Source of the DNA: Promethearchaeia archaeon
GTDB lineage: Archaea > Asgardarchaeota > Lokiarchaeia > Sigyniarchaeales > SOKP01
NCBI GenBank assembly: GCA_046483985.1
Contig: JAWOCD010000051.1
Coordinates: forward strand, 1 to 15,567
DNA: 15,567 bases
Reading direction: 5' to 3'
Shown here: positions 1,944 through 14,379 of the stretch, piece after piece
Layout of the letters: each line of letters opens with the position of its first letter
Position numbering within the stretch: the stretch's first letter is position 1
Program-made: the position numbers and the translations under genes
The notes under the pieces: model-generated
The model's database searches: none
Seen by the model: only the letters and a program-made list of their open reading frames with translations
What the model was told of the DNA's origin: nothing

Positions 1944-2006
1944 TAAAAATTAAATAATCGAATGTCCCTCGTTTTTTAATAATATTTGTATTATATATTA
2001 AATAAC

Positions 2007-4172
2007 ATGGTATCAGATGTTCCCCGCTACTTTAATCGCCATTATTTGAAAAAGAATCAGATTCATTATCGACATTATCAAGATAAAATTGCTAAAGCAT
2101 GTCAAGATAAAAATTCATTGGTAGTACTCCCCACAGGGTTGGGAAAGACAATTATTGCTTTTCTTGCCATGTCATATACCTTAGAAAAGTATAACCGCAA
2201 GGGGAAAATACTCTTATTGGCACCTACCCGACCGCTCGTCTCTCAACACGGACAATCGTGTGAAAAGTTTTTGAATATACCCCGTAACGAAATTGTTATT
2301 CTAAATGGTCGGGTAAAGCCTATCAAACGAGTCCAGTTATTCAACGAGTCAAAAATAGTTATTTCTACCCCTCAAGTCATTAAAAATGATATAGAACGTG
2401 GGAGATATGATCTCTCAAGGGTGACCCTTCTTATATTTGATGAGGCTCATAGAACGAAAGGAAATTATGCATACAATTTTATTTCCCATTATTATATTCA
2501 AAGGTGTAATGATCCGCAAATCTTAGGTCTCACTGCATCCCCGGGAAAAAATGAAGAGATCATACAAGATGTGTGCAATAATCTTTTTGTGGAGAATATT
2601 GTCTCAAAAAAGAGAAATGATGCAGATATTAAGAAATATATCCATGACATTGACCTCTATCTTGAATATGTTGATTTACCAATAGAACTTGTTGAGATTG
2701 TGGAAGTTTGGAAGAGTCTCTTTAATAAATATCTACAATTTTTTATTGACAGGGATTTAATCAATCCATATAAGGAATATTACTCAAAATTGGATTTTTT
2801 GGCAATAGCCAAAGATTTAACTCTTTCATTGAAATATGAGGAGGATGAATACCTTGATCCCGTGGAACAAGAAAAATATTTGGAGCAATTATATTATCGC
2901 GACCCGAAAATCATAGAAATCGTCCAAGAAAACAATCTTAATATCTATGCCATTTTTTCCTATTGTTCTTCTTGCATTTCCTTATTGCATGGGAAGGATT
3001 TATTGGAAACCCAAGATATTGCGTTATTTACCTCATTTTTGGAGAAAATAGAACGAAAAGCGGCAAATGACATTAAAGCGGGAAAACGTATTACTCGTTC
3101 TGAACACTTTAAACTCATACAGTCCCGGCTAAGCCAGAACAACAAAGCAGACTATGCTCATCCCAAAATTAAAAAGGTCTTTTCCCTCCTTAACGAGGAA
3201 TTGCACGAGCATGACAATAAAAAATTAATTATTTTCACCCAATATCGGGAAATGGCCGAGGAACTAAAAAAATTGGTGAGGGAAGAATTTGGGAATCTAC
3301 TAACCGTGGAAAAATTTATCGGACAAACCAATAAGATAGACGACCCAGGATTTTCCCAAAGCACCCAAATTGATATTTTAGATAAATTTCGAAATGATGA
3401 GATCGATGTATTAATTGCAACAAGTGTTGCCGAGGAAGGGCTGGATATTCCCAATGTCGATGCATTAATCTTTTATGAACCAGTGCCCTCCGAAATCCGG
3501 TTTATTCAAAGGCGTGGCCGGACGGGCAGATCTAAAGATGGACGCTGCTATATTTTAATTGCGAAAGGTACTGTGGATGTGCCGTTTTTTAAAGTGGCAA
3601 AGAAGAAAGTGGGCACCATGAATAATATTCTCGAGGATACCGAAAGATTAGACTTAAATCAGAGTATTGAACGAAAGAAAATCGATTTCTCGGTATTTGA
3701 AAATGCGTATTCCCAGTATGAAGTTATCAAAAATTTCAAGGAAAGGAAGGAGAAGGAAAAAGAGTTATTAGCACATCGCTCTCTGGAAGAAATTATCGAG
3801 AAAATTGATACTTTTTGTAAGAGCGAACAATATGGCAAATATAAAAATCAAGGAGTCACCTTTTTTAACGATGTGGTTGATTTAAACAAGGAAAAGATGA
3901 AATCGCATCTCTATAGGATTAAAAAAGTAAAAAAACCTAAAAACAAGAACAAAAAGAAAAGAAAACGATATCTGAATAATAATGTTAAAACACTCATAGA
4001 TATAGTCAAATATAGCGAAAATCAAGCGCTAAGTTTAGATAAATTTAAGGAATTTGCGGAAGACGAGGAAATTATTGGAAAAAAATTCCATATTCATTTC
4101 AATCGTGCCTGTTATTTAGAATATCTTAAAAAAGAAGATGGTCAAGTACTATTTCTGAAGGGATATGATTAA
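2007..4172 (+). CDS. hef: Hef/FANCM/Mph1-family SF2 DEAH-box helicase; C-terminal ERCC4 nuclease not recognisable
   Basis: Q-motif RHYQ, Walker A LPTGLGKT, Ia APTRPLVSQH, Ib STPQVIKND, II IFDEAHR, III GLTASPG, IV IIFTQYRE, V ATSVAEEGLDIP, YEPVPSEIR, VI QRRGRTGR. ATG 2007 is preferred over the TTG at 1986. Confidence 0.93.
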   Translation: MVSDVPRYFNRHYLKKNQIHYRHYQDKIAKACQDKNSLVVLPTGLGKTIIAFLAMSYTLEKYNRKGKILLLAPTRPLVSQHGQSCEKFLNIPRNEIVILNGRVKPIKRVQLFNESKIVISTPQVIKNDIERGRYDLSRVTLLIFDEAHRTKGNYAYNFISHYYIQRCNDPQILGLTASPGKNEEIIQDVCNNLFVENIVSKKRNDADIKKYIHDIDLYLEYVDLPIELVEIVEVWKSLFNKYLQFFIDRDLINPYKEYYSKLDFLAIAKDLTLSLKYEEDEYLDPVEQEKYLEQLYYRDPKIIEIVQENNLNIYAIFSYCSSCISLLHGKDLLETQDIALFTSFLEKIERKAANDIKAGKRITRSEHFKLIQSRLSQNNKADYAHPKIKKVFSLLNEELHEHDNKKLIIFTQYREMAEELKKLVREEFGNLLTVEKFIGQTNKIDDPGFSQSTQIDILDKFRNDEIDVLIATSVAEEGLDIPNVDALIFYEPVPSEIRFIQRRGRTGRSKDGRCYILIAKGTVDVPFFKVAKKKVGTMNNILEDTERLDLNQSIERKKIDFSVFENAYSQYEVIKNFKERKEKEKELLAHRSLEEIIEKIDTFCKSEQYGKYKNQGVTFFNDVVDLNKEKMKSHLYRIKKVKKPKNKNKKKRKRYLNNNVKTLIDIVKYSENQALSLDKFKEFAEDEEIIGKKFHIHFNRACYLEYLKKEDGQVLFLKGYD

Positions 4173-4321
4173 TAAAGTGATATTTCTTTAATATATAACA
4201 ATATTCGGGAATTTCCTCTTCCTAAATATCTATTTGAAAGTTGAATTTAAAATTTATAAAAATTGATTCCTATATTGAATATTATAAATTGAGGAAATAT
4301 TTTATCATAAAGAAATACGAT

Positions 4322-4442
4322 CAAATTCACCGTCCCTTCGGGGACGATCATATCGGGGTGGAGAACCATCCTATGTTGTCTAAGGTGTGTATAACACATT
4401 AGGGAGCACGAATCCACCGCCCTTTAGGCCGTGGTAGTTCAA
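4322..4442 (+). mobile_element. Non-autonomous IS200/IS605-family miniature element (MITE/PATE-like) with omegaRNA-like structured core
   Basis: GC-rich island in AT-rich DNA. Left hairpin CGTCCC-TTCG-GGGACG (4331-4346). Right end GAAT (4410-4413), imperfect hairpin CCACCGCC-CTTTA-GGCCGTGG (4414-4434) and TTCAA (4438-4442), matching the guide/hairpin/cleavage-site layout of IS608/ISDra2 right ends. No tnpA/tnpB ORF. Left boundary approximate. Confidence 0.75.
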
Positions 4443-4476
4443 TCCAACTTTCCTTTTAGAAGCGGGAGGTTAATAG

Positions 4477-4752
4477 ATGATAGAGACAAATGAACTGATA
4501 ACCTTATTCATTGGAATAGGAACATGCATCTTCATTGTTACTAAATATTCAAATCTGATTAACCTCCCTAAGTTAAAACTGTTGGTTTCTTCGTTTTCTA
4601 TATTTTTACTCGGTTGGGTTTTAACAATCCTTGAAGGGATATTTTATCAAGATTTACTCAATATGGTCGAGCATCTGTGTTATTTCTCTGCTTCACTACT
4701 GCTCGTCATTTGGATCGTTAAAGTATATAAAAAAAGAGAGGGATGTAATTAA
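4477..4752 (+). CDS. Small 3-TM membrane protein, probable accessory sensor subunit of the downstream kinase
   Basis: 91 aa with three hydrophobic helices, a GGAGGT RBS ~7 nt upstream, and a stop that overlaps the kinase start (TAATG, 4750-4754). Confidence 0.8.
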   Translation: MIETNELITLFIGIGTCIFIVTKYSNLINLPKLKLLVSSFSIFLLGWVLTILEGIFYQDLLNMVEHLCYFSASLLLVIWIVKVYKKREGCN

Positions 4753-5759
4753 TGAATCTAATTAGTATTATTGATATCTCCTCTTTTATAACTATTATAA
4801 TTGGAATGTTAATTGTTATATTTAAGAGTTCGAAAAAAATTCCCGCGAATATGACGCGGATTATTCTATTGCTATTAATATTAAACTCTATTCATCATTT
4901 ATTCAACTTTATTGAATGGGCTATTTATCCTGTTATCGATTTTTATGACGATTTTATTGAAATTTTACAACCCATAATTTGGATGTTTGTTTTTTATGAG
5001 TTTATTCAAGAGGAGTCTAAGAAAGAGTTAATGAAAAGCAAACAAAGATATATTGAAGCCTATAATCGGGTTGAATTCTTTAAAGATCTTCTTGCCCACG
5101 ATATGGCCAACATTCTTCAAAATATTAATTCATCCATAGAGATGATTGAATTACAGGATATAGAGGGGACAATTTCGGAGAAGAGTAATGAAATGATGGA
5201 TATCATGAAAAATCAAATTACAAAGGGCTCCTCCTTAATCTCAAGAGTGCGGAAGCTCTCAAAAGTAGAGAAGGAAGTAAAGGATAAGAGTCTGGTTGAT
5301 ATAGAGAAGATACTTAATGAAATAATCAAACATATTCACTCTCGAGTTCGGGAAAAAAAGATTATAATAGAGAAGGAATTTGATTCCATCACCGATAAAG
5401 TGATGGGCGGTGATCTCCTTCTTCACGCTTTCGAAAATATCCTCCTAAATGGATGTGTCCATAACGACAGCGAACCCATAAAATTATGGGTTATTCTTTC
5501 TGAAGTTCAAGAGAACGGAGAAACTTTCGTAAAGATAGAGTTCAAGGACAACGGTATTGGTGTTTCAGATGAAACAAAAGAATCCATCTTTGAAAGGAAC
5601 TATAAAAAGAATAGAAATATGACTGGAATGGGTATTGGGTTATCGCTCGTGAAAAAAATTGTGAATGGTTATGGTGGTCAAATCCAAGTTGAGAACCGGG
5701 TAAAGGGGGATTATACTCAGGGAAGTAATTTTATCGTTACTTTACCAACGGTATCCTAA
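4752..5759 (+). CDS. Sensor histidine kinase (3-TM N-terminus, HisKA, HATPase_c)
   Basis: H-box LLAHDMANILQ, N-box AFENILLNG, G1 FKDNGIG, F-box IFE, G2 GMGIGLSLV, C-terminal GSNFIVTLP. Confidence 0.93.
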   Translation: MNLISIIDISSFITIIIGMLIVIFKSSKKIPANMTRIILLLLILNSIHHLFNFIEWAIYPVIDFYDDFIEILQPIIWMFVFYEFIQEESKKELMKSKQRYIEAYNRVEFFKDLLAHDMANILQNINSSIEMIELQDIEGTISEKSNEMMDIMKNQITKGSSLISRVRKLSKVEKEVKDKSLVDIEKILNEIIKHIHSRVREKKIIIEKEFDSITDKVMGGDLLLHAFENILLNGCVHNDSEPIKLWVILSEVQENGETFVKIEFKDNGIGVSDETKESIFERNYKKNRNMTGMGIGLSLVKKIVNGYGGQIQVENRVKGDYTQGSNFIVTLPTVS

Positions 5760-5791: not shown

Positions 5792-8700
5792 TCAAACTTT
5801 TTCCTTTTCTCGTTTCTTAAACATTAGGTAAGCAATTACAAACGTAATAAATAGAAGCGGGATTGCAGCTACCATTGGATTTTCACCGGTTAACACAAAA
5901 CTATAATAAGTAATCGTCAAAGTCGATGCAAAAAACGCGATAATGGAGCTATATTGAGTTGTGAAGTTCTTAAGCCTCGTAAGAAACATATAGACCTTGT
6001 AGTTCATTTTCTTAATGACTTGAAGCTCCTCCTCATTAATATTCTCCAAAACTCTGGGATCTTCATAATAGATCCCTAATCGGGGGTCATATTTTCCAGG
6101 TAACTGGTCTGACCCGATTAAATAAATTAAATAGTCTTGGATACGCTTTTTCTTAATTTTGAGTTCATTATTGATAAAGCTAATGGTAAGGAACCCATTT
6201 GCGACCGCTTTAATGCTCATCTCCACATAGGATTTTAAAATCATTCTATGGAGATTTTTAGCTTTCTCTTCTACGGTCTCCCCAAACTCTTTCAAAAACT
6301 TATCGAAGTCTTCAAAGAGGTATTTATTCTTAGTCTCAAAATTTTTGGCTTTTTTACTGTATCTTTTATTAAGGTTTTTAATCTCTTTTTTGGCTTCACC
6401 AATAAGATCTAAAATATTTTCTTTTCTTTTCCTTATTTTGTTGTTAGCCTTTTTGAATTCTCTTATCTCGATATATTCTTTCACTCTTTTTTGAAGCGTT
6501 CCGAGTAATTGAGAAAAGAATATCTTGCGTTCGTTTATGTAATTTAATAATTTTTCACGTAAATCTTCATGTTTTAAAATGTTGATTTTATCTCTCAATT
6601 TATCTTTCTTTTCTTCATATTCCTTAAAGAAATGGTTTTTGTTATTTACATAGATTTCTCTTAATTCTGCGTCAAGATTCTCGGATTTAAAATCATCATC
6701 TATTGATTTTTTAATTTTTTCATCAATTTCATCTTCTATATTCTCCAATCTATTCTCAAATTTTTCCCTTTTCTTGGTGAAGTACGCATTTACCTTTTCA
6801 TATGATTCAGTTTTATTTATTTTTTTTTCAATTGAGGTTTCAAATTCTCTTAATTCTAATTTTGCATTGTTATAACGAGAAATTATAAAGCTCTGAAGAT
6901 CTGAAAATAATTTAAGATTTTTTTTGATGTCCATCAAGGCCTGCGCATCCTTATTGATTCGAGATCCGAAATTTTGTTTAATTTCTTTAAAATCTTTCAA
7001 TGTCTGATCGATTCCAAGGGACCGCACTTTTTCATTAAATTTCTTCATCATTTCTTTGTCAAAATCGCTGAGTTCATTTATGCGATCTTGCAATTCGCTT
7101 AAATTTATTTTTAGGGTCTTATGTTTGATGGCAGAGTCATACAATGCTAAAATCTTTCCAACCGATTCATAATTTTTCTTTAGCAGTGAATTTTCTACAT
7201 AATTGTTAAGTTTTTTAATCTTAAAGTATTGTTCTGTATAAACTAACAGGTAATTTTCTTTTTCATCTAATTCTCCCTCGAGTTTAGACATGTCGATCAT
7301 ATCTTTTATCCTTTTCACTAGAATCTTACATTTAAGGTTTACGCTTTTCTTTAAATCTTTAATGAGGATACTGTTGGTCTTCGTTCTATTGATTAATTTA
7401 TTGATCTTAGCGCTTATGATGCTATTGATAAATTCGTCCCTCACATTCTCCAGTTCATCGTAAAAAAATTCCTTAAATTTTTTCCATTTTATAATGGAGA
7501 CTTTGAGTTTTTCGTTGAAATCCTTAACTAATTCATTGCATGCTTCTAATTTTTCTTCAAATTGCTCATCTATCTCTTGGAAATCTTCTTTTAACTCCTC
7601 TAAGTCATCTTCAATATCTGAAATCTCTAGATTTTTAATTATTTGTGGATCGCTTAACTCCTCTTTGTAATTTTGGATTTTACTCCTATACGTTGATGCA
7701 TTTTCGGAGATAAAATCTTCGAAATTTTTGATCTTGACTTTATTTCTTTTCTTAATTACTTTACTCCGAAGGTCACTGACGGGTTCTTCTATTAAATCTA
7801 TCAAATTCTCTTCGATTTGGTCAGATTTATTCTGCAAATGCCGATAGAGCAAGAACAACTTTTGATTCTTTGTTAACTCCTTGTCAACTGCTTTTTGAAT
7901 TTTTTTTATCTCTTTTGATTTTTCCTTAAGTTGCTCTTCCGACTGTTTTTTAATGATCTCAAATGCTTCTTGGAATTCTTTTTCTTGTATTGAATCAGCG
8001 ATTTTATCCTCAATATTCTTAATATCTCTGTTTATTCTTTGTTTTATTTGCTCCAACTTTTCCAAATAATCTTCAAAAAACTGAAATCCATGCTCGTAAT
8101 ATTCAAAAACTTCCGACATTTCTTCCTTAATGCTTATCCAATTGTTGATCACTTCTCTATGCTTCTTGAGGATTACCTCCTCCTCCGTCGAAATATTCTT
8201 CGAAAAGTCAAATATCTTTTGATCAAACTTCTCAACACTGTCCTTAATGCTTCTAAACTCCCGTTTAATTAAGGAGAATTTATCCTCTGTGTATCCGTCT
8301 TGTAGAGTTTCCCTGAGATACTTGCGAAAATCGTTTATCCGTTTGTTATAATAATTTCCTGTCTGAAATATCTTCTCATCCAGCTTTTCCAATTTGAAAT
8401 TGAGTTTCCTTAACTCTTCTTTTTCGGCAATCTCAACTTGTAGATCTTGATCGATATTTTTCAGTTTTTGTTTTAATCGAGAATATTCTTTTTGCCATTT
8501 TTTAATTTCCGTCGACAATCTAGCTCTAATATTAATATAGTATAGATCAACATTGAAGTTATTCTCTATATTCTCGTTGAGAAAGTCCGCGTTCATCAAA
8601 GCATCCCTGAGTATAAATCGGAGTCTCTGTTTTGCCAAATCAATCTCGTTTAATATTAAATAGCTCTTTACTTCCTCTTTAATTTGATTTGAGGTCTTTT

Positions 8701-10210
8701 TTAATTTTAAACGCATATTAAAGATATCATTTTCGATTTCTTTGAGTTTTTCTTTCTCTTCTTCTAACCGTTCCAAGTTGATCTTCGTATCGGAGATAAT
8801 TAGTTTTTCGATAAAGGTATCCAGATAAAAGTAATACTTTTTTTTGATTAGATATTTGCGTTTTGTTCTAATTTTTCCCTTAAAGAAATGCTCTTCTTTC
8901 ATATCGTCTATTAATTCTATAACATCCTTAACTTTTAGTTCCTCAACGGGAAAATCGGATTTATGCTCTGATACAATATCAGATATCGAGATAACGCTAT
9001 TTTCCCTTAGCGAATTATATACAGCTTTTGCAACTATTTGCTCTTTGGCATTTAAACCTTTAATGTAATTATGAAATTTATGTTCGTTATTAATTATCCT
9101 CAAGTTAAAAACATAATTTAAATTTATATAGGAAACGATATCTTCCATAACATCGGAAAGTCCGAACAGACAAGTAATTTTATTGAGATCAAGGAACGTT
9201 TTATCTTCGAGTTCCTTAAAGATTGCTCGTTCGATTTCATCGATAAACTTTTCCCAAATGAGTGATAAGATAATTATAAGTTTTGAGATGTCTTGAATCT
9301 TTCTTGGGCTCCAATTATCTTTATTTGCTAATATTTTTGTTAGGTGGGAATTTATATAGGCATATATTCCAGCAGGATTATAATCAAAGAACCAAGAAAA
9401 CGTATGTAGAGTGTATACGGTCCAAAAAGTCTCATTTATGGTAGATCTCTCCTCTGAAAAATTATATCCTCCGTCTTCTTTTTGTTGCCCATTTAGATAC
9501 TCCAAATCCTCTCTTTTAACCTTAGAGTTTAACCCTAAGTAATTTAAACAGAGGAGTTTAAAATTTACACTGTAATCTTCCGTAGTCTTACTGATAAAGT
9601 TCAAAAATTTTGATTGCTGGATTCGGATATCCGTTTTTAATAAAGAAAAAATTTCAATTATGAAAAAGAGCGTTTTTTCGGGCGGAAATCCTCCACATAT
9701 TTCGCAATCTTTATTTTTGCAATGGATAAATATGTTTTTTTTCTGATGCGATATGATAAACCGCTTAATTTCAGATGGAACCCGACCTTTTCCTTTTGAT
9801 TGTAAATATTCCTTCAAAACACCCAGAATTTTCATTGAGACCAAGGCGTAATACGTAGACCGGACATTGGGATACTTTTTAGGAGAAGCGGGATTCTCCT
9901 TAAATCCTATTCTCCCATCTTTTAGTTCGTATTGACAACTCTGGATAAATTTATACAATTCTTCTGTTTTCGCAAAATTTTGCTTGAAATACTTTCCCAA
10001 TAATAGAAACCAATACACTTTTTTTAGGGTAAGGCTTTTATCATCAAGCAAGTTTTTCTTGAAATATTCATAAAATTCATCCAACTGGTCATAAGCACTA
10101 AAGAAAAAACTGCCGATCTTTCGATCCTTAATTAAACTAAAGGATTTGAAGGGCGCTTTTTTGAATGTAGTGATATAAGGATAGCCAGATTTTTCTTCAA
10201 TTATTGTCAA
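5792..10210 (-). CDS. 1472-aa multidomain protein: prenyltransferase/squalene-oxidase-like repeats, PCI-like winged helices, long coiled coils, C-terminal 2-TM anchor
   Basis: Uninterrupted ORF with TTG start and GGAG ~10 nt upstream. PFTB-like repeats FIQSCQ..DGRIGF..PNVRSTYYAL and YLNGQQKEDGGY..STINETFWTV. PCI-like segments at aa ~945-990 and ~1339-1384. E/K-rich heptad regions. Hydrophobic hairpin at aa ~1421-1464 followed by KKREKEKV. The CDS itself is secure; domain calls are by motif recognition. Confidence 0.85.
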   Translation of the reverse strand: MTIIEEKSGYPYITTFKKAPFKSFSLIKDRKIGSFFFSAYDQLDEFYEYFKKNLLDDKSLTLKKVYWFLLLGKYFKQNFAKTEELYKFIQSCQYELKDGRIGFKENPASPKKYPNVRSTYYALVSMKILGVLKEYLQSKGKGRVPSEIKRFIISHQKKNIFIHCKNKDCEICGGFPPEKTLFFIIEIFSLLKTDIRIQQSKFLNFISKTTEDYSVNFKLLCLNYLGLNSKVKREDLEYLNGQQKEDGGYNFSEERSTINETFWTVYTLHTFSWFFDYNPAGIYAYINSHLTKILANKDNWSPRKIQDISKLIIILSLIWEKFIDEIERAIFKELEDKTFLDLNKITCLFGLSDVMEDIVSYINLNYVFNLRIINNEHKFHNYIKGLNAKEQIVAKAVYNSLRENSVISISDIVSEHKSDFPVEELKVKDVIELIDDMKEEHFFKGKIRTKRKYLIKKKYYFYLDTFIEKLIISDTKINLERLEEEKEKLKEIENDIFNMRLKLKKTSNQIKEEVKSYLILNEIDLAKQRLRFILRDALMNADFLNENIENNFNVDLYYINIRARLSTEIKKWQKEYSRLKQKLKNIDQDLQVEIAEKEELRKLNFKLEKLDEKIFQTGNYYNKRINDFRKYLRETLQDGYTEDKFSLIKREFRSIKDSVEKFDQKIFDFSKNISTEEEVILKKHREVINNWISIKEEMSEVFEYYEHGFQFFEDYLEKLEQIKQRINRDIKNIEDKIADSIQEKEFQEAFEIIKKQSEEQLKEKSKEIKKIQKAVDKELTKNQKLFLLYRHLQNKSDQIEENLIDLIEEPVSDLRSKVIKKRNKVKIKNFEDFISENASTYRSKIQNYKEELSDPQIIKNLEISDIEDDLEELKEDFQEIDEQFEEKLEACNELVKDFNEKLKVSIIKWKKFKEFFYDELENVRDEFINSIISAKINKLINRTKTNSILIKDLKKSVNLKCKILVKRIKDMIDMSKLEGELDEKENYLLVYTEQYFKIKKLNNYVENSLLKKNYESVGKILALYDSAIKHKTLKINLSELQDRINELSDFDKEMMKKFNEKVRSLGIDQTLKDFKEIKQNFGSRINKDAQALMDIKKNLKLFSDLQSFIISRYNNAKLELREFETSIEKKINKTESYEKVNAYFTKKREKFENRLENIEDEIDEKIKKSIDDDFKSENLDAELREIYVNNKNHFFKEYEEKKDKLRDKINILKHEDLREKLLNYINERKIFFSQLLGTLQKRVKEYIEIREFKKANNKIRKRKENILDLIGEAKKEIKNLNKRYSKKAKNFETKNKYLFEDFDKFLKEFGETVEEKAKNLHRMILKSYVEMSIKAVANGFLTISFINNELKIKKKRIQDYLIYLIGSDQLPGKYDPRLGIYYEDPRVLENINEEELQVIKKMNYKVYMFLTRLKNFTTQYSSIIAFFASTLTITYYSFVLTGENPMVAAIPLLFITFVIAYLMFKKREKEKV

Positions 10211-12174: not shown

Positions 12175-14379
<2,205 letters not shown>

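Follow-up and report, generated by a model that had tools for sequence, protein, structure and literature searches.

The segment at positions 4303–4442 of the window (the whole 15 567-nucleotide stretch of DNA analysed, which is contig C14 in its entirety) is probably what is left of an extinct IS605-group insertion sequence (a tnpB-carrying member of IS200/IS605), a solo right end truncated on its 5' side and decaying via deletion. This reading stands on the repeat status of the segment, its boundaries, its homology to tnpB, its covarying structure, the missing left end and the lack of an intact cognate tnpB in the assembly; a deletion, transcription of the remnant and neutral evolution would complete the explanation. 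The segment is ordinary transposon debris, neither a riboswitch nor a new regulatory RNA.

Dispersed copies, the right boundary and tnpB

A BLASTN search of the genome (4.06 Mb, 35% G+C, 97% complete but fragmented into 128 contigs) with positions 4300–4480 returned 75 matches, and those that reach the right end nearly all stop at 4441–4445. By motif search, the terminus consisting of the end hairpin and TTCAA was found in 38 copies, with unrelated sequence after each, and between the window and its closest copies the identity of the flank from +1 to +40 is at background level. A covariance model built from the 95-nt core of the element gave 64 matches in this genome (E ≤ 1e-3). The 75 BLAST matches and 64 covariance-model matches, with right flanks that all differ, bear out a reading made from the sequence alone, which had predicted multiple copies with different surroundings. 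Several subfamilies could be distinguished that are common in the last ~35 nt and divergent upstream. The block common to other copies begins at ~4303, not at 4322, so that of the element extent first proposed (4322–4442) the right end stands and the left start does not.

At the right end, GAAT (4410–4413, plus strand), which is conserved in nearly all copies, corresponds to the right-end guide tetranucleotide (GR) of IS608. It precedes a subterminal hairpin (4414–4434, plus strand), assigned by type as the imperfect palindrome bound by TnpA, after which the sequence reads TAGTTCAA and finishes at 4442. The right cleavage site (CR) is TCAA at 4439–4442 on the plus strand; all copies end here and continue into unrelated flanks. 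Sequence and copies thus agree with the earlier placement of GAAT before the last hairpin, of TTCAA after it and of the element end at 4442. In IS608 the right-end guide is GAAT and the cleavage site TCAA, with TTAC and AAAG on the left (PMC5934647). The window hairpin differs from the subfamily consensus by one substitution, C instead of G at 4429; this changes a hairpin with a bulged C into one with a C-C mismatch.

The closest copies are located at C24:23752–23891 (96% identity), C18:104594–104495 (96% over 100 nt) and C71:19327–19188 (91%), each directly after a match to PF07282 (the TnpB zinc ribbon), at the 3' end of a tnpB fragment. In these copies the tnpB frame crosses the repeat as far as a stop codon 43 nt short of the TTCAA terminus, with the C-terminal peptide ...NILKKYDQIHRPFGDDHIGVENH.VLSKVYIAH, and in C24 and C71 the frame that matches window 4304–4402 continues upstream into the PF07282 domain. 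What the window retains of tnpB is its 3' end, the last 32 codons (IIKKYDQIHRPFGDDHIGVENHPMLSKVCITH, 4304–4402, plus strand) with the stop codon at 4400–4402, followed by the non-coding right end at 4403–4442. An intact parent type occurs in the sister genus g4, where a TnpB open reading frame of 416 aa with PF01385 and PF07282 domains (locus L096, G015:C93) is enclosed by a left end reading TTTAC, CATAATTAAAGCAGAAAG and a hairpin, and by a right end reading GAAT, a hairpin and TAGTTCAA; intact TnpB elements in that genus span 416–437 aa. The expected tnpB-bearing element with the same end therefore exists, as fragments in this genome and intact in the sister genus.

The segment has what defines an IS200/IS605 right end: a subterminal imperfect hairpin, GAAT and TCAA, a sharp boundary at many loci and copies linked to tnpB or tnpA. 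The IS200/IS605 origin given in the sequence-only reading is upheld by the IS608 tetranucleotides and the tnpB-linked copies. A REP/RAYT-type repeat was considered and excluded, since the block contains tnpB coding sequence and an IS608-type end. Three findings that would speak against such an element, namely a single copy, no tnpB-bearing relative with the same ends and no covariation, were each looked for and none of the three was encountered.

The host is archaeal, judging from ribosomal protein S28e (matched in archaeal controls only) and four strong actin-family genes (best score 440 bits); a search of the assembly for an archaeal SSU rRNA gave no match.

The RNA fold and its covariation

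Both the minimum free energy and the centroid fold of positions 4322–4442 consist of four stems (−45.8 kcal/mol, z = −3.58, with none of 200 dinucleotide shuffles as good), reproducing the four consecutive stems first drawn by eye. Stem 1 (4331–4346, plus strand) has 6 bp and a UUCG loop (CGTCCC-TTCG-GGGACG); stem 2 (4355–4372, plus strand) has 7 bp and an AGAA loop (GGGGTGG-AGAA-CCATCCT); stem 3 (4374–4408, plus strand) is an interrupted helix of 13 bp that spans the tnpB stop codon; and the fourth fold unit spans 4410–4440 and contains the 4414–4434 hairpin. Stems 1 and 2 and the 5' half of stem 3 fall within the former tnpB coding sequence. The reverse complement folds worse (−37.2 kcal/mol, z = −1.82), as expected if G-U pairs matter on the plus strand.

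Covariation was assessed on an alignment of the last 95 nt of 26 copies, 21 from this genome and five from sister genomes (G015, G035, G042 and G066); two of these five follow long TnpB open frames of 436–437 aa (G015:C93 and G035:C434). RNAalifold by itself gave a weak and partly different consensus, and for this reason the structure of the first reading was tested explicitly on the alignment, using as a control the same alignment with the 3' partners slid by 1–3 columns. In the 26-copy alignment 88.3% of cells are paired, compared with 37–44% for slid partners, and the covariation score is 0.315 against 0.06–0.10; a smaller alignment agrees. Changes on both sides were seen at 13 of 32 pairs (75 cells). 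In the same 26 copies, 88% of stem 2 cells are paired with compensatory changes at three of its seven pairs, double changes occur at five of the 13 pairs of stem 3, and the end hairpin has compensatory changes at five pairs. Many of the alternations in stem 3 are between G-U and A-U, which preserve pairing on the plus strand only. We conclude that stems 2 and 3 and the end hairpin form a conserved, covarying and strand-specific scaffold. It is encoded by the 3' end of tnpB and the right end, it stops at the transposon boundary and its structure covaries; it is a genuine omegaRNA scaffold.

Stem 1 behaves differently. It is limited to the subfamily of the window (the family-W copies), where changes are mostly without compensation; it is absent from elements of the G015/G035 type, and relative to the sister-genus TnpB it corresponds to an insertion of five codons (RPFGD). 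Because it is confined to one subfamily and its pairs are lost in decayed copies without compensation, a conserved helix at stem 1 finds no support. Covariation of the internal stems, as first claimed, thus holds for stems 2 and 3, as for the end hairpin, but not for stem 1, which may be a relic of a hairpin insertion nested within tnpB. An arm of the type-2 left-end hairpin described below has exactly the sequence of the 5' arm of stem 1, CACCGTCC (window 4328–4346).

Rfam, searched at gathering and at permissive thresholds, contained no family with a meaningful match; the one hit was of the UUCG hairpin to part of PhotoRC-I, far below the cut-off. The 26-copy alignment and the covariance model thus describe an omegaRNA scaffold that no Rfam model matched in this analysis. 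Among 61 genomes sampled from the taxonomic family, the model found eight with matches at E ≤ 1e-5, including all four genomes of genus g4. The window copy scores 97 bits, equal to copies attached to tnpB. Between the C24 and C71 copies the omega part is identical at 131 of 140 positions (93.6%) and the adjoining tnpB pseudogene part at 117 of 131 (89.3%), so the former is not significantly better conserved. The earlier suggestion of selection on an RNA survives as far as the covarying, omegaRNA-like scaffold is concerned and fails for new selection at this locus; the stems come from the parent element by inheritance.

The left junction and mobility

BLAST searches with positions 4100–4330 detected no repeated sequence to the left of 4303, and local alignment of 4173–4302 with the upstream tnpB sequences of C24 and C71 was no better than with shuffles (p = 0.87 and 0.69, respectively). 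A tblastn-type match had reached 4220, but this residual tnpB similarity upstream of 4303 was rejected, there being no signal against shuffles. The genome contains two types of left end, TTTAT followed by CATTAAAGGCAAAAGAATA and a hairpin (type 1) and TTTAC followed by CACTAGAGTGCGAGAAAG and a hairpin (type 2), seen as 37 hairpins with no TTCAA behind them. No hairpin of either type is present on the window contig, which has at most a left-end tip of 8–12 nt. Both types obey the pairing rule of IS608, TTAC occurring with the guide AAAG beside the hairpin and TTAT with AATA. Their coexistence implies two putative target specificities in one insertion sequence population.

Close copies are truncated at positions equivalent to window 4343, 4364, 4368, 4371, 4385, 4395 and 4396, with unrelated sequence to the left; their left junctions have no common motif, and no other copy has the left junction of the window. 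Fragments lacking the right end, and fragments with the N-terminal region of tnpB only, are also present in the genome. Since the truncation points vary and such fragments exist, the truncation pattern is that of deletional decay of old insertions. Truncation by TnpA was considered and discarded, as no consistent TTAC or TTAT occurs at the left junctions of other truncated copies. A left-end-like motif lies within 1.8 kb upstream of ~9 of 49 scaffold copies, although the pattern used was loose and matched the window itself too.

At the junction proper (4301–4312, plus strand), TTTAT and CATAAAG may represent a target motif and the very beginning of a type-1 left end, joined here to the tnpB tail, an assignment that is uncertain. 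The junction sequence TTTATCATAAAG is closer to the start of type-1 left ends (TTTAT, CATTAAAG) than to the string present in parental tnpB (AAATATCTTAAAG). The type-1 consensus here is TTTAT, CATTAAAGGCAAAAG and, further on, the hairpin, and parental tnpB reads TATCTTAAAG at the same point, with only ~4 nt that discriminate a left-end tip from tnpB homology at 4301–4312. TTTAT at 4301–4305 fits the target motif but overlaps a region also explained by tnpB homology. In so far as TTTATCATAAAG resembles a left-end tip beside a TTAT target, it argues against a strictly right-end-only element. A deletion between TATCATTAAAG and TATCTTAAAG would yield exactly the window sequence, and we consider it about equally probable that this did or did not take place; even if it did, the left-end hairpin is gone. 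A second copy built like the one in the window, at C107:50534–50679, has an unambiguous junction: a left-end tip of 19 nt (TTTATCATTAAAGGCAAAG) is fused directly to the same tnpB tail and the right end, with no left-end hairpin.

The course of events that best fits a decaying right end would be the following. A full element would have inserted on the plus strand between a helicase gene and an operon with a small open reading frame and a histidine-kinase-type gene. A later deletion would have taken the left-end hairpin and all of tnpB except the last 32 codons, and may have joined two near-identical strings, TATCATTAAAG at the left-end tip and TATCTTAAAG in the 3' region of tnpB. Stems 1–3, GAAT, the end hairpin and TCAA are left; in intact relatives this portion encodes the scaffold of the TnpB omegaRNA.

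The sequence-only reading had instead taken the segment for a mini-element mobilised in trans by TnpA. In its most specific form, TnpA would move a unit of ~137 bp as a palindrome-associated transposable element (PATE), with TTAT at 4302–4305 as left cleavage site and stem 1 as a surrogate left hairpin. The TTTAT-CAT at the left junction agrees with how type-1 left ends begin, a type-2 left-end hairpin has an arm identical to the 5' arm of stem 1 (CACCGTCC), the right end is complete and Y1 transposase genes exist in the genome. However, stem 1 is internal in the tnpB-bearing copies and is a perfect helix with a TTCG loop, unlike the imperfect palindromes with TTTA loops, and it is preceded by TCAC, not by the AATA guide that TTAT would require under the IS608 pairing rule. 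There is no second copy of this architecture, and the left junctions differ in all close copies. Of the features expected of a PATE, neither two terminal hairpins nor several short copies of one form at different sites were found for it, and the sequences give no sign that the short form ever transposed. With no left-end hairpin, nothing repeated left of 4303 and a left junction that is unique, the claim of mobilisation was not sustained, and this explanation is very unlikely indeed. As the left-end hairpin is absent, the remnant should be neither excisable nor transposable by TnpA.

True two-ended derivatives do occur elsewhere in the genome, for example at C85:18420–18723 and C17:111260–110778. 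A single-hairpin mini-element of ~47 nt is present in at least seven copies, starting with TTTAT and CATAGACGGCAAAAGAAA, followed by one hairpin and the tail GTAGTTCAA, and both flanks differ from copy to copy (right-end positions C45:82027, C45:44461, C45:4887, C74:22720, C99:47681, C107:60606 and C11:21680). It looks like a left-end/right-end fusion via similar hairpins and like the truly minimal protein-free derivative in this genome. At the contig ends C125:1–120 and C127:1–180 there are tandem arrays with a 54-nt period, whose unit consists of TTAC, CACTAAAGTGCGAGAAAG, a hairpin and GAGACTTCA; these look like head-to-tail single-hairpin mini-elements of the high-copy TnpB family treated below.

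Transcription, guide function and relation to known systems

A gene and an operon enclose the remnant, both outside it and on the same strand. Upstream lies the gene for a DEAD/DEAH-type helicase of 728 aa (1986–4172, plus strand; Pfam DEAD, Helicase_C and ResIII), and downstream an operon (4477–5759, plus strand) with a 91-aa open reading frame that has no Pfam match and a gene for a histidine-kinase-type ATPase protein (HATPase_c). From the element end to the ATG of the gene at 4477 there are 34 nt, with a Shine-Dalgarno-like GGGAGGT at 4464–4470, and A/T-rich TATA-like strings occur at 4253–4262 and 4280–4289. From this arrangement we infer that the operon promoter lies to the left of the remnant, which would be transcribed within the leader. 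Loss of the 1.3-kb interior of the element may then have been favoured, reconnecting promoter and operon. Read-through from the helicase gene is one possible source of transcription. Most likely the remnant would be transcribed passively within the leader of the downstream operon and decay neutrally.

The remnant could alternatively have been exapted as a cis-regulatory leader that modulates transcription, translation or stability of the small-ORF/histidine-kinase operon. It has the orientation of the operon and ends 34 nt before the ATG, the space between 4443 and the start codon is too short for a separate promoter, so that the operon mRNA probably includes it, and one terminator-like site was flagged at stem 2. 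Yet the terminator scan used a bacterial model and the genome is archaeal, which leaves that site of little value, and the same sequence at ~50–64 unrelated loci means that no features are specific to this locus; there is no Rfam match, and synteny is absent in relatives. The status of dispersed repeat excludes a riboswitch or leader-element reading as such, and exaptation of this one copy is extremely unlikely. Helicase orthologues in family-level relatives have 50–60% identity and do not have the same downstream genes; because those genes are not kept beside the helicase, the empty site is not readable there. An exact 29-mer of the right flank had no match in the metagenome contigs searched, nor did the helicase query among the genome contigs searched. 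Elsewhere in the window, a 1472-aa open reading frame (5792–10210, minus strand) has as its sole Pfam signal a marginal prenyltransferase alpha-alpha toroid at residues 56–163, and a 732-aa protein (12181–14379, plus strand) has two peroxidase-domain stretches (catalase-peroxidase, KatG-like).

In TnpB systems the sequence that follows the right end serves as the guide, and by this rule any omegaRNA produced here would have positions 4443–4462 (plus strand) as its guide; these also belong to the leader of the gene that follows. A functional orphan guide RNA, for which the sequence-only reading had argued, would be a remnant that is transcribed, processed and loaded in trans by a TnpB or a nuclease-dead derivative. 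The scaffold has all its parts and reaches the scores of copies linked to tnpB, its structure is conserved and strand-specific, the TATA-like strings and the co-oriented helicase gene could drive transcription, and trans-acting, PATE-borne omegaRNAs have been proposed (PMC10055086). But the partner is missing: tblastn with the sister-genus TnpB found only fragments of the cognate family in the assembly, the longest aligning over 188 residues. A PF01385 search found one intact RuvC-bearing TnpB, on contig C97, with an open frame that covers at least 409 aa before the contig ends. Its identity to the cognate type is 23.5%, and it is a member of a high-copy family with another right-end sequence 5' of the hairpin. 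That family (C97:1–1754; tnpA and the TnpB frame of at least 409 aa, right end GGAATCCCCGTCCTTTAGGGCGGGGAGACTTCAA) is apparently active; many contigs end in it, and it is probably among the main reasons why the assembly breaks.

Nor is there another target. The predicted guide had no second genomic match with 0–1 mismatches (positions 4443–4458), and with up to three mismatches 93 forward and 85 reverse matches were counted, close to the 78 and 67 of the reversed-pattern control. At the locus itself, the guide-matching DNA is preceded by TTCAA instead of a TTAC or TTAT motif, and a separate TAM-adjacent target complementary to the guide, as in TldR-type systems, was not found in the genome. 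The omega part also has no excess conservation. A guide for a TnpB encoded elsewhere, with the cognate family in fragments and the intact TnpB from another family, thus found no confirmation, and we rate it very unlikely. Because the cognate TnpB is absent, any transcript of the remnant would be without a partner. It is scarcely probable that the dozens of TnpB-less scaffold copies are a retained repertoire of trans-acting guides for a TnpB, or a derivative, that is unassembled or too divergent, in which this copy couples transcription of the operon to guide production.

Some observations weigh against the interpretation of a decaying solo right end. The 128-contig assembly breaks at repeats, and an intact cognate tnpB could be unassembled. 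A score as high as that of tnpB-attached copies suggests a scaffold that is not yet degraded, to which a compatible TnpB could still bind. That ~50 scaffold copies contrast with only a few fragments of the tnpB interior might point to preferential retention, although decayed tnpB fragments are detected less sensitively at the protein level.

For annotation, the structured element 5' of the operon at 4477 should be masked as an IS200/IS605 remnant. The genome is a well-resolved case of an archaeal TnpB family caught after extinction, with the nuclease intact only in the sister genus, and the ~50–60 right-end/omegaRNA scaffolds that persist together with many left ends can serve as a data set on the question whether omegaRNA ends persist longer than their nucleases.

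Compared to IS608 and the IS605 group, the element has the same subterminal imperfect hairpins and, at its right end, the GAAT and TCAA of IS608. The left ends seen in this genome (TTAC with AAAG or TTAT with AATA) follow the IS608 pairing rule, and tnpB is placed to the right, where its 3' end and the right end overlap. The element differs in that the window copy consists of the last ~140 bp only, without left end, tnpA or tnpB, in an Asgard-like archaeal host, and in that tnpB is the only gene between the ends of the intact relatives examined, an IS1341-like arrangement. With the TnpB omegaRNAs or reRNAs of ISDra2 and Geobacillus ISGst it has in common a structured RNA over the tnpB 3' end and right end, with a covarying scaffold (PMC10055086), that stops at the transposon boundary and has the flank as potential guide, whereas here the assembly has no intact cognate protein, Rfam gives no match and the RNA is a predicted one. 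The Halanaerobium PATE combines a 28-nt piece of the left end and 58 nt from tnpB with the right end (PMC7290912), and according to Meers et al. PATEs often encode omegaRNAs that need TnpB in trans (PMC10055086). The window copy is likewise protein-free, derived from an IS605-type element and in possession of a tnpB tail and right end, but PATEs keep both terminal hairpins and it is without the left one. PATEs that carry omegaRNAs are thus already described in the literature, and what this locus adds is a remnant of an IS605-group right end and its omegaRNA.
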